Virus record (IMG/VR): IMGVR_UViG_3300046710_000151
Coordinates: 1 to 64,000 of that record
From: a virus
Taxonomy: Duplodnaviria; Caudoviricetes
DNA length: 64,000 nt
Direction: 5' to 3' (one strand)
Shown in pieces: positions 52,191 through 54,523 of this stretch. The notes beneath the pieces are model-generated. The model was given only the letters and a program-made list of their open reading frames with translations, did no database searches and was not told the DNA's origin. Positions within the stretch are counted from its first letter, which is position 1, and every line of letters begins with the position of its first letter. Position numbers and translations under genes: made by a program.

Positions 52191-52300
52191 AATCTGATTT
52201 AACGGTTTTGCCTGTTCCGGCTGAATCCTTCCTTTCATCCGCCCACTCGGGCGGTCGAGGCGATCTTCAGTCGCCGCATACAGCGTCGGGGGCAGGCGAT
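52191..52300 (+). ncRNA. Candidate tracr/scaffold RNA upstream of the type V-like effector
   Basis: Hairpins CCGCCC-ACTC-GGGCGG (52239-52254) and GGCGA-TCTTCAG-TCGCC (52259-52275); TCTTCAGT, CCGCAT and TCCTTCC are complementary to parts of the array repeat. Confidence 0.45.
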
Positions 52301-52312
52301 GAGGGCGAGCAT

Positions 52313-53482
52313 GTGCGACAGCGCGTGCTCGCCATTAAATTGAATTGTGATGACGACACCTATCGTCTGGTGAAAGAGTTAGGATGGCAGGCGGCGCGCT
52401 ACCGCAATCTTTTTCTGCGGGCACGCTGGGCCGAAGCGAAACAGCTTTGCGTCGATCCGGTGAAGGCGGTTCCGCACGATGTCACTAAGCACATCCGCGC
52501 TACCGAAAAGATGGATCTCGGCTGGTGTGTTTCTAGCGCTTGCGAACGCGAGTCCCAGGTGGCATGGCAGTGTCACTGTCGGCGCATCCTAGCGGGTGGG
52601 CCGCTGCCTGAATCGAGCCCAAATGCGGCCCTCACGATTCGCGGCGACAAGCGCCGCATGGAATCGGGCGTACAACTGGTGGAGACGGAGCCGGATCGGT
52701 TTGTCGCGCGGTTGCGGGTATTAAGTGAGAGATTGGCGGATGGTGCTATGCGCGCGGAGGGCTGCTGGATTGAGGTTCCGGTGGCACTGGGGACGGCGAA
52801 GGATTGGCAGATCGATCTGATCCGCCGTATGAGCGCGGGCGAAGTTCCGATCCTGAAGGGTGCCCTTGTCATTAAGCCGTTTCGGCATCAGGTGATCTTG
52901 CAACTATGCTATCCAGTCACCATTGCCCTGCCGCGATTTGGCAACCGCTGCGCCACCTTGGGTCCGGTCGGCCAGGGCGGCAGACTGTTTCTGCGCACAG
53001 AATGCGAGACGCGCGATTACTCGGGGCGGCTGCACGCGATTCTGGACCGCAAGGAACACTGGGGCGGTATCCGGCGGCGGGTCATGGCGCAGATCGGACG
53101 GCACAAAGGTGCCTCCCGGACCAAGCGGGAAGTGCTGGCGCGGATGACTTGGGCCGACTGGCTGAAGACCGAATTGCATCAGTGGACTTGCGAGATTGCG
53201 AAGTGGCTGGACTCGCAAGGCATCGCCAAATTGACCGTGATGGGCTTGGGCAATGCGGATTGGTCAATCTTCGAATTTACACGAATGCTCACGTACAAGT
53301 GTGAAGCGCTGGGAATCACTTTGACCAGCGAAGCGGACTTAGCCGATGTGGGAACTGAACGGTCGGTGAAGCAGGAGATTCAGCGTGAGCGGCGCAAAAC
53401 AACCAAACGGGCCGGGGCGCTGCGTACGCTTACGGCCTCAGTCAACGCGCCGTTGGCCAATGATACGACAGGAAAAGGATAA
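52313..53482 (+). CDS. Compact nuclease-dead TnpB/Cas12f-fold RNA-guided protein
   Basis: GTG start 7 nt after GAGGG; N-terminal LAIKLN...GWQAARYRNLFL; RuvC-I position reads CATLGP (no Asp); ELHQWTCEIAKWL...KLTVMGL (no Glu); WSIFEFTRMLTYKCEALGI matches the TnpB/Cas12f W..L...IEYKA...GI motif; no CxxC zinc finger or RuvC-III. Confidence 0.8.
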   Translation: MRQRVLAIKLNCDDDTYRLVKELGWQAARYRNLFLRARWAEAKQLCVDPVKAVPHDVTKHIRATEKMDLGWCVSSACERESQVAWQCHCRRILAGGPLPESSPNAALTIRGDKRRMESGVQLVETEPDRFVARLRVLSERLADGAMRAEGCWIEVPVALGTAKDWQIDLIRRMSAGEVPILKGALVIKPFRHQVILQLCYPVTIALPRFGNRCATLGPVGQGGRLFLRTECETRDYSGRLHAILDRKEHWGGIRRRVMAQIGRHKGASRTKREVLARMTWADWLKTELHQWTCEIAKWLDSQGIAKLTVMGLGNADWSIFEFTRMLTYKCEALGITLTSEADLADVGTERSVKQEIQRERRKTTKRAGALRTLTASVNAPLANDTTGKG

Positions 53483-53487
53483 AGAAT

Positions 53488-53811
53488 ATGGACAATCAAA
53501 CGACTACTGCATTAAACGATCTGGCACCGCAAGCGGTCGCTGAGATCAAGAACTATTTTCAATCGACGGTGGACAGCGAGGACAGCGCCTACAAACGTGC
53601 CGACCTCGGGCTCAAGGTCTTGGGGCGGGTCAACGGCAACGATTCCAACCGAATCAAAGTGCTGGCACTCCAATTCCAGGTGGCCCGCATGATGGGCGTC
53701 AAGGGAGATATGCTGCGTCCGCTGTTGGCGGAACTGAATCCGGCTCTTGCGACTGCCGGGGTAATTGCTGCTCCTCAACCCGTTGTTGGGGCTTTGTCTC
53801 CAGCGGCATAG
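53488..53811 (+). CDS. 107-aa helical protein between the effector and the array
   Basis: Starts 5 nt after the effector stop with an AAGGA RBS; its stop lies in the first repeat. Confidence 0.75.
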   Translation: MDNQTTTALNDLAPQAVAEIKNYFQSTVDSEDSAYKRADLGLKVLGRVNGNDSNRIKVLALQFQVARMMGVKGDMLRPLLAELNPALATAGVIAAPQPVVGALSPAA

Positions 53812-54435
53812 GACTTTGTGGAAGGAACTGAAGGGAACCGACACCAACCCCGGACCCACGGCGCAGCGAGTAGGGACATGGAAGGAACTGAAGGTTGTCG
53901 AGCCCGTGTGCTGGTTTGGGCGCAGCATGTAGGGAATGTAGAAGGAACTGAAGGGTGCAAGGCCCGTCTGCCTTATGCCGCCTGGGCGCAGCAAGCACGG
54001 AATGCGGAAGGAACTGAAGGCAATAAGGCTTTCACACTGCGTCGGCGCAGCAGGGAATGCGGAAGGAACTGAAGGACTGATGAACTCCGCGCCCATTCGG
54101 GGCACGCCGGGGGAAGGAACTGAAGGGACTCGACAGCGCTCTCTACCGGCGCAGGAAGTAGGGAATTCGGAAGGAACTGAAGGGCATCGGGTCCGAACAG
54201 CCCGCGCCAGTCGAACGGAATGCGGAAGGAACTGAGGGTTGCAAGGCGGCAACACGGTAGGTTGCGGAACCGCCTCGAATGTGGAAGGAACTGAAGGAAG
54301 CATAGATCCGGTTCCGAATCGACTGAACCAGCCGTAGCGCAGCGAGTTGGTGAATAGGAAGGAACTGAAGGCGATACTCTTCATCCGCGGCGTTCTTGGC
54401 GCAGCGGGTTAGGTGAATAAGGAAGGAACTGAAGG
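53800..54435 (+). CRISPR. CRISPR-like array, 11 repeats, invariant 3' core GAAGGAACTGAAGG
   Basis: Core at 53821, 53881, 53941, 54007, 54062, 54113, 54170, 54225 (one mismatch), 54284, 54358 and 54422; looser ~36-nt consensus GGCGCAGCnnGTAGGGAATGCGGAAGGAACTGAAGG; unique ~20-37 nt spacers. Confidence 0.85.
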
Positions 54436-54487
54436 TGGCCGCCGTACAGTCCGAGAAGGTTGGCACCGTGCCGTGAAGTCAGAGCCA

Positions 54488-54523
54488 CCGCAGCGCCGGG
54501 GTCTTCCCCGGCGACGGTTGCGG
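54488..54523 (+). other. Strong GC hairpin downstream of the array
   Basis: CGCCGGGG-TCTT-CCCCGGCG with a flanking CCGCAG/TTGCGG stem. Confidence 0.6.

Follow-up and report, generated by a model that had tools for sequence, protein, structure and literature searches.

Nuclease-dead relatives of Cas12 are emerging as natural programmable regulators, with Cas12m, TldR and the sigma-E-linked dead Cas12f of Bacteroidota (dCas12f-sigmaE) as examples, and a locus on a tailed phage from peat raises the question of what such a protein does when a temperate phage carries it beside many guides. The window analysed here is a stretch of 64,000 nucleotides (nt), positions 1 to 64,000 of IMG/VR virus record IMGVR_UViG_3300046710_000151, which measures 76.5 kb in full and has a CheckV completeness of 73%. 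The locus combines a Cas12f-like effector gene, an RNA scaffold embedded in the 5′ end of that gene, a small partner open reading frame (ORF) and a degenerate CRISPR array (Table 1). We read it as a self-contained, adaptation-free guide system, derived from type V-F and carried by a temperate phage, that would bind DNA without cutting it, and we put the probability of this reading at about 0.6.

The identity of the effector emerges from its fold. Pfam gave no match to the protein and PHROGs only a weak match to a TnpB-type ‘transposase’, and a profile made from a family alignment of 32 sequences (A1) and run against the sequences of the Protein Data Bank (PDB) matched solely Cas12f and TnpB chains. 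The AlphaFold2 model, with a predicted local distance difference test (pLDDT) score of 86.9, contains the WED, REC and RuvC parts of the type V-F Cas12f/TnpB fold, and Foldseek places it best with Cas12f1 structures at E values of 1e-14 to 1e-17, including 7.8e-17 to AsCas12f 8j12. VIA-align of the model gave Z-scores of 20–22 to SpCas12f1, AsCas12f and OsCas12f, highest for SpCas12f1 (Z 21.9, 331 residues aligned), and lower scores for dCas12f-sigmaE (18.5), TnpB and Cas12k (14–15) and Cas12m (11–12); Foldseek matches to Cas12m structures, at E values of 1e-9 to 1e-7, likewise stand well below those to Cas12f1.

Within this fold the catalytic residues are gone. Alignment with AsCas12f and the nearest zinc-finger-bearing relatives places G217 (ATLGP) at the position of the RuvC-I aspartate and a glycine (LTVMGL / VMGLG) at that of the RuvC-II glutamate, and the A1 alignment to PDB sequences also sets a glycine opposite the RuvC-II glutamate of AsCas12f. 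The RuvC-III motif and the C-terminal CxxC pair are missing, leaving no intact D-E-D triad; the TNB zinc-finger domain PF07282 gives no Pfam match, and a basic helix (residues 346–378) occupies the zinc-finger/RuvC-III position. Because the RuvC-I aspartate, the RuvC-II glutamate and the zinc-finger/RuvC-III module are all lost, sequence and model together predict a protein that binds DNA and does not cut it. Conservation at the three codon positions of the effector body (0.75/0.80/0.55) indicates purifying selection on the protein, which thus appears to be a conserved, nuclease-dead Cas12f derivative. A preliminary description, drawn from the sequence alone, had proposed a TnpB/Cas12f architecture, loss of the two acidic residues and a basic helix in place of the zinc finger and RuvC-III, with structure prediction and fold comparison as a check, and all of these proposals were borne out by the models and alignments. 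Its ORF, 52313–53482, is indeed an open frame, but the start is most likely wrong: an in-frame extension reaches an ATG at 52187 that shares the sequence ATGA with the stop codon of the ORF upstream, and the effector most likely begins there, giving 431 amino acids (aa).

We next placed the effector within its family. An exhaustive profile search of 1.84 billion representatives defined a family of 126 clusters at 50% identity, in which the C-terminal CxxC pair is absent throughout members P0033–P0155 save the three most distant, whose sequences match Pfam Cas12f1-like_TNB (PF07282) and OrfB_IS605. We fetched 22 related loci (denoted by L numbers below) and judged array linkage on the 18 with sufficient flanking DNA; an array adjoins the effector gene in 18 of 18, and a partner homologue is found in 16 loci, the co-occurrence that the preliminary description had suggested looking for. 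Carriers include phages with terminase and portal genes or with RecT, ERF, YqaJ or SSB modules. In L021 (1–5700), scaffold, partner and array stand beside genes for TrbL, VirB8, CagX/VirB9 and TrbI/VirB10, and given these type IV secretion genes the system is also present on a conjugative element; judged by gene content, the carriers of the family are mobile elements. Protein patterns found no relatives in species genomes, and two RNA-pattern matches there were chance hits, rejected by the covariance model described below. At the locus of P0047, a more distant member, a divergent helix-turn-helix (HTH) gene of Aca2 type (Pfam Aca2_YdiL) lies directly upstream, with a D5-type primase nearby.

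The N-terminal ~42 codons of the effector overlap a scaffold RNA resembling a trans-activating CRISPR RNA (tracrRNA). Alignment A3, comprising the scaffold from 15 loci, supports helices P1 and P3 together with an additional two hairpins in ‘long’ forms. Pairing extends to 86.9% of cells compared with 69.8% after shuffling, a level that none of 500 shuffles reached; the covariation score is 0.301 compared with 0.107 (slid controls at most 0.10), and 18 pairs show changes on both sides. P3 is paired in 100% of cases and displays four pair types at two positions. R1, a covariance model built from A3, finds the scaffold once in each of 17 loci, and an Rfam search of the scaffold returned no match. 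A rival helix joining GGCUGAA with UUCAGUC, suggested by single-sequence fold prediction, is without covariation support and was discarded.

Two segments of the scaffold, anti-repeats 1 and 2 (AR1 and AR2), show complementarity to the final 15 nt of the repeat, and comparison across lineages shows that they co-vary with the repeat 3′ end. In L016 a repeat ending ...GTCGGAGAGGAACTGAGG accompanies TCCTCTCCGAC and CCTCAG in the scaffold, so that CTGAGG matches CCTCAG and GTCGGAGAGGA matches TCCTCTCCGAC. In L002 a repeat ending ...GAGCAGGGAGGGGAAG accompanies CCCTGCTC and CTTTCCC, matching GAGCAGGG with CCCTGCTC and GGGGAAG with CTTTCCC, and in L024 a repeat ending ...GGAGAGGGATTGGAGG accompanies CCCTCTCC and CTCCAA, with TTGGAG opposite CTCCAA. 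The L016 repeat end was predicted from its scaffold before the array was read, and the prediction was correct. Some long-form scaffolds (L004, L010, L012 and L013) have a third, contiguous anti-repeat in the P5 loop, exemplified in L004 by CAGTTCTCC, which is complementary to GGAGAACTG of the repeat; the long form of L009 is without it.

The position of the scaffold leads to the question of whether this stretch is coding sequence or RNA. In 15 of 15 aligned loci it lies in frame with the effector, 3′ of an ATG or GTG, and the insertions of the long forms measure 30, 33 or 36 nt; together with the ATGA overlap, these features suggest that the stretch is translated. Blocks at the ORF 5′ end are nevertheless conserved at all three codon positions, and the scaffold stretch, at 0.66/0.66/0.61, lacks the codon periodicity of the effector body. 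In L010 and L005 the scaffold is set apart from the gene with an array between them, and the protein starts at the conserved core. In our reading the scaffold is an RNA element, and the N-terminal extension that it usually overlaps is dispensable and putatively translated. The scaffold RNA of the preliminary description is a real element, with helices that covary in the alignment of 15 loci, but with the likely start at 52187 it lies inside the ORF and not upstream of it. The detached scaffold in L010 (270–450) begins with an ATG and stays open for ~60 codons to a TGA within the first repeat, and it may have arisen by recent rearrangement or else be a short ORF that is translated.

The array retains the part of the repeat that the scaffold addresses. 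GGAAGGAACTGAAGG occurs in 11 copies at 53820–54435, all on the + strand, compared with 0.13 expected by chance; 9 of the 11 are exact and 2 differ by one base, and the copies end at 53834, 53894, 53954, 54020, 54075, 54126, 54183, 54238, 54297, 54371 and 54435. The period is 51–74 nt and the spacers, about 20–39 nt long, are all unique, in agreement with the 11 repeats and unique spacers reported earlier. A drifted block of ~20 nt, GCGCAGCnAGTAGGGAATGC, stands 5′ of each core, from which the window unit reads as a ~35-nt repeat with a degenerated 5′ half. Canonical arrays with 36–37-nt repeats and ~36-nt spacers are present in L001, L002, L016 and L020, the repeats ending in GGAACTGAAGG in L001 and L020, as in the window, in GGAACTGAGG in L016 and in GGGAGGGGAAG in L002. 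Just an 11–17-nt core, such as GTGAGAGGAACTGAAGG, is left in L003, L004, L008–L010 and L012–L014, where it recurs every 30–50 nt and the gene is often surrounded by two or three arrays, and the portion that survives in these mini-arrays is the portion docking on the scaffold. The window array is an intermediate stage between canonical and mini-repeat arrays, and no guides recur from one lineage to another. Loss of RuvC-III from Cas12f, followed by shrinkage of the array, has been drawn previously as a scenario (PMC10691335), and the series from 36 nt through the drifted repeats of the window to 15 nt bears on how arrays become guide arrays or single guides and on the minimal repeat length for a Cas12f-type effector.

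The 107-aa partner ORF named in the preliminary description likewise proved to be a constant feature, with homologues 3′ of the effector or between arrays in the 16 loci noted above. Its family comprises 61 clusters, all unannotated, and the AlphaFold2 model (pLDDT 74.6) has five helices, packed as a bundle of four to five, and its tail is disordered. The distribution across loci points to a strictly co-inherited, obligatory accessory. As to its role we can only guess at candidates: stabilisation of the complex, standing in for a second Cas12f protomer, or coupling of DNA binding to a host factor.

How might these parts work together? The operon from 52187 to ~54520 would be read as one transcript, because promoter and terminator consensus scans detected no internal promoter or terminator between these positions. 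Covariation indicates that the 5′ part of this transcript would fold into the ~88-nt scaffold, in which TCCTTCC is predicted to pair with GGAAGGA, and the loop UCUUCAG with CUGAAG, within the last 15 nt of each repeat. By homology to Cas12f, the protein would bind the duplex of scaffold and CRISPR RNA (crRNA), and the 14–25+ nt 3′ of each repeat would serve as a guide for R-loop formation on matching DNA. Most likely the bound complex would block transcription or replication, at as many as 11 selected sites on host DNA or on rival mobile elements. Cas12m and the type IV systems on plasmids act as roadblocks of this kind. The analogy of Cas12m and of further inactivated type V subtypes (PMC10442227, PMC12669027, PMC11656645) suggests that host or rival-element DNA would be silenced, as the preliminary description had proposed for host defence genes or rival phages, and dead Cas12 effectors are known to silence by binding (PMC10442227, PMC12669027). 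If the system works in this way, it would be a very compact multiplex DNA-binding platform of ~390–430 aa with an ~88-nt scaffold and 15-nt handles, and its targets, once identified, would reveal what a temperate phage silences.

Several results weigh against this proposal. When the 11 units of the window were compared by BLAST with the 76.5-kb record of the phage itself, the matches did not exceed chance level, and the longest seed-anchored self match, 12 nt at 39892, has a ~15% chance of arising over 11 guides. The 224 guides of all loci, compared with all loci, produced only false matches inside the partner gene; the window, L016 and L020 arrays matched phage and plasmid collections at E values of at least 0.2, which is noise; and six exact 20–22-mer spacer scans of viral contigs found no matches. 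The partner, for its part, is without a recognisable fold relative: Pfam, PHROG and PDB sequence-profile searches gave no match, and Foldseek and the ESM Atlas returned generic helical bundles only. Regarding the targets, dCas12f works with 13–14 bp of guide pairing (PMC13472631), and for this reason targets may be findable only with the host genome.

Binding without cutting could also serve an end other than a roadblock. It is possible, if doubtful, that the effector acts as an address label and that the partner converts binding into another output by bringing in, for example, RNA polymerase, a nuclease or helicase of the host, or the machinery of replication or partition, in parallel to the recruitment of sigma-E by the Bacteroidota dCas12f. 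Co-inheritance of the partner in every locus with sufficient DNA fits such a role, dCas12f as a recruiter has precedent (PMC13472631), and a ParB-like gene lies 3′ of the window array, but this neighbour is not kept in other loci, and the partner, a simple bundle of four helices, matches neither sigma factors nor nucleases nor any known adaptor. With somewhat greater readiness, though still tentatively, we consider a stripped-down Cas12f ‘guide cassette’ of mobile elements that would unite a scaffold in the effector 5′ coding sequence, ~15-nt repeats, ~14–20-nt guides, guide gain independent of Cas1-Cas2, and a partner that turns multi-site binding into a non-roadblock output, either by replacing a second protomer or by recruiting a host machine. 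If true, such a cassette would give phages and conjugative elements programmable control of many host or rival loci at once.

Other explanations fare worse. That dead effector and scaffold are an anti-CRISPR decoy, sequestering crRNAs or tracrRNA that belong to a type V-F system of the host, is unlikely: a phage-borne, nuclease-dead system would suit this purpose, and the same has been proposed for a phage Cas9 with an inactive RuvC domain (PMC11656645, PMC12669027), but the element brings arrays of its own that hold numerous unique spacers, co-evolution ties its anti-repeats to the repeats of the element and not to a host repeat, and family members are also found on a conjugative element. We give slightly less credence to a protein that remains a nuclease, its catalytic site rearranged or completed by a residue from the partner. 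Two triad positions are glycine and the third was deleted with a whole structural module, and although the TnpB/Cas12 family offers known cases of catalytic rearrangement (PMC10691335) and the acidic residues D235, D316 and E78 are invariant in this one, D316 lies opposite D or N in active relatives, which is no catalytic position, and the partner is an all-helical bundle without a nuclease signature. Least probable is a decaying, non-functional V-F remnant, as the degenerated repeat 5′ half, irregular period and lack of an adaptation module might suggest; against it stand a protein body shaped by purifying selection, a large family whose members are always linked to arrays, compensatory changes maintained in the RNA helices and in the pairing of repeat with anti-repeat, and a repeat 3′ core that is exact or within one base in all copies.

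The preferred reading, a guide system that binds without cutting, places the locus among known dead type V effectors on mobile elements, of which it is a variant; the family would represent the same exaptation on soil and peat phages and conjugative elements. The best whole-protein structural matches are the type V-F1 nucleases (AsCas12f 7WJU/8J12/8DZJ, SpCas12f1 9I8Y and OsCas12f 9NZS), which share with the phage system a size of ~400 aa, an array with a trans scaffold, an anti-repeat to the 3′ part of the repeat and a guide 3′ of the repeat. The adjacent array and anti-repeat scaffold of type V-F can thus be recognised in the phage sequence. In contrast to Cas12f1, the phage effector has a destroyed triad and a basic helix in place of the deleted TNB zinc finger and RuvC-III, its scaffold is just ~88 nt and embedded in the effector 5′ coding region, and the system has a dedicated partner, phage and conjugative carriers and no adaptation module.

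The dCas12f-sigmaE system of Bacteroidota (PMC13472631; 9N9C/9N9M) is also nuclease-dead and C-terminally truncated with a Cas12f fold, and it is an RNA-guided binder with short guides, an activity that the phage protein would share. It differs in having rpoE, whereas the phage system is without rpoE or an HTH partner and its own partner is unrelated; in its single chimeric guide, compared with a phage scaffold ~1.5 kb from an 11-guide array; and in its setting, a Bacteroidota chromosome as opposed to a phage or plasmid in peat and soil. Inactivation was probably independent in the two, because active Cas12f1 proteins outscore 9N9C in structural comparison and 9N9C is not among the sequence-profile matches. 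In Chitinophagaceae, a dCas12f cluster that adjoins CRISPR arrays and has no sigma factor has been noted in passing (PMC13472631, Extended Data Fig. 1).

Cas12m (PMC10442227) and inactivated V-C, V-O and V-P (PMC12669027) are further type V systems of mobile elements with arrays, no adaptation module and no double-stranded DNA cutting, for which transcriptional silencing of rival elements has been proposed or shown, and several inactivated type V subtypes block transcription (PMC12669027). Cas12m is structurally distant from the phage effector (Z ~12), and what the two would have in common is functional, namely binding without cutting. Cas12m is also larger and handles the processing of its crRNA itself; it is not known to require a tracr-like scaffold, and to our knowledge it has no conserved small partner. 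TldR proteins (PMC10705468) likewise belong to the TnpB/Cas12 lineage, have a dead RuvC and repress under the direction of a guide, but they derive directly from TnpB, use a single omega-RNA-like guide encoded beside their own gene, have no CRISPR array and are found on host chromosomes next to the genes that they regulate, whereas here a multi-guide array and a separate scaffold are carried by a phage. CRISPR-associated transposons (CASTs) of type V (V-K and Mu-associated V-F, PMC11656645) carry transposase genes such as DDE/rve, TnsC/TniQ or MuA/MuB; in the 76.5-kb record of the phage (73% complete), rve has no match. Neither Cas1, Cas2 nor Sigma70_r2 matched there, in accord with the earlier claim that cas1/cas2, sigma factor and transposase are lacking, and these absences rule out the sigma-E and CAST architectures. 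The contrast that the preliminary description drew with the literature was overstated, given the dead or crippled Cas12m with its arrays on plasmids, array-linked dCas12f without sigma (PMC13472631) and the subtypes of PMC12669027. Our literature search found no description of the phage- and plasmid-borne family, the partner, an ORF-embedded scaffold or 15-nt mini-repeat arrays; what appears to be new relative to that literature is the split anti-repeat scaffold inside the effector reading frame, the strictly co-inherited small partner and the series from canonical to mini repeats.

Table 1. Features of the phage guide locus and its neighbourhood (window positions).
Feature	Position	Strand	Basis or remark
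dCas12f-like effector gene	52187-53482	+	431 aa from ATG 52187; conserved Cas12f core from 52313
tracr-like scaffold RNA, ~88 nt	52210-52297	+	covariation, covariance model
P1 closing helix	52210-52221 with 52285-52297	+	alignment A3
AR1, TCCTTCC	52226-52232	+	complementary to GGAAGGA of repeat
P2 hairpin	52239-52254	+	
P3 hairpin	52259-52263 with 52271-52275	+	alignment A3
AR2, TCTTCAG (P3 loop)	52264-52270	+	complementary to CTGAAG of repeat
Partner ORF, 107 aa	53488-53811	+	four-helix core, disordered tail
Degenerate CRISPR array, 11 units	53801-54460	+	invariant 3′ core GGAAGGAACTGAAGG
GC-rich hairpin CGCCGGG / CCCGGCG, 7 bp	54495-54513	+	read from sequence; directly 3′ of last guide
ParB-like protein gene	54846-55799	+	PHROG 1033, E 7e-21; weak Pfam ParB HTH; directly 3′ of array
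Tyrosine recombinase/integrase	58880-60085	-	Pfam Phage_integrase, 53.7 bits

The record that carries the locus belongs to a tailed phage, with genes for a large terminase, portal, head protease and tape measure protein; the terminase is lambda-type and only distantly related (40% identity) to those of phages of Gram-negative hosts. The phage is temperate, as the preliminary description had held, because it carries a tyrosine integrase gene; a 389-aa ORF on the + strand overlapping that gene is spurious. The ParB-like gene may hint at a plasmid-prophage lifestyle, and it is not kept in related loci. Pfam gave no matches for ten neighbouring ORFs. A 290-aa ORF at 53512–54384 on the − strand, spanning the array, is an artefact of the purine-rich repeats and no gene, and the same kind of false gene call occurs across the arrays of L020 and L023. 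DNA contigs from two peat metagenome studies contain the locus without any difference. The GC-rich hairpin that follows the last guide has no T run and was not scored as an intrinsic terminator, and it may be the 3′ end or a stability element of the array transcript.

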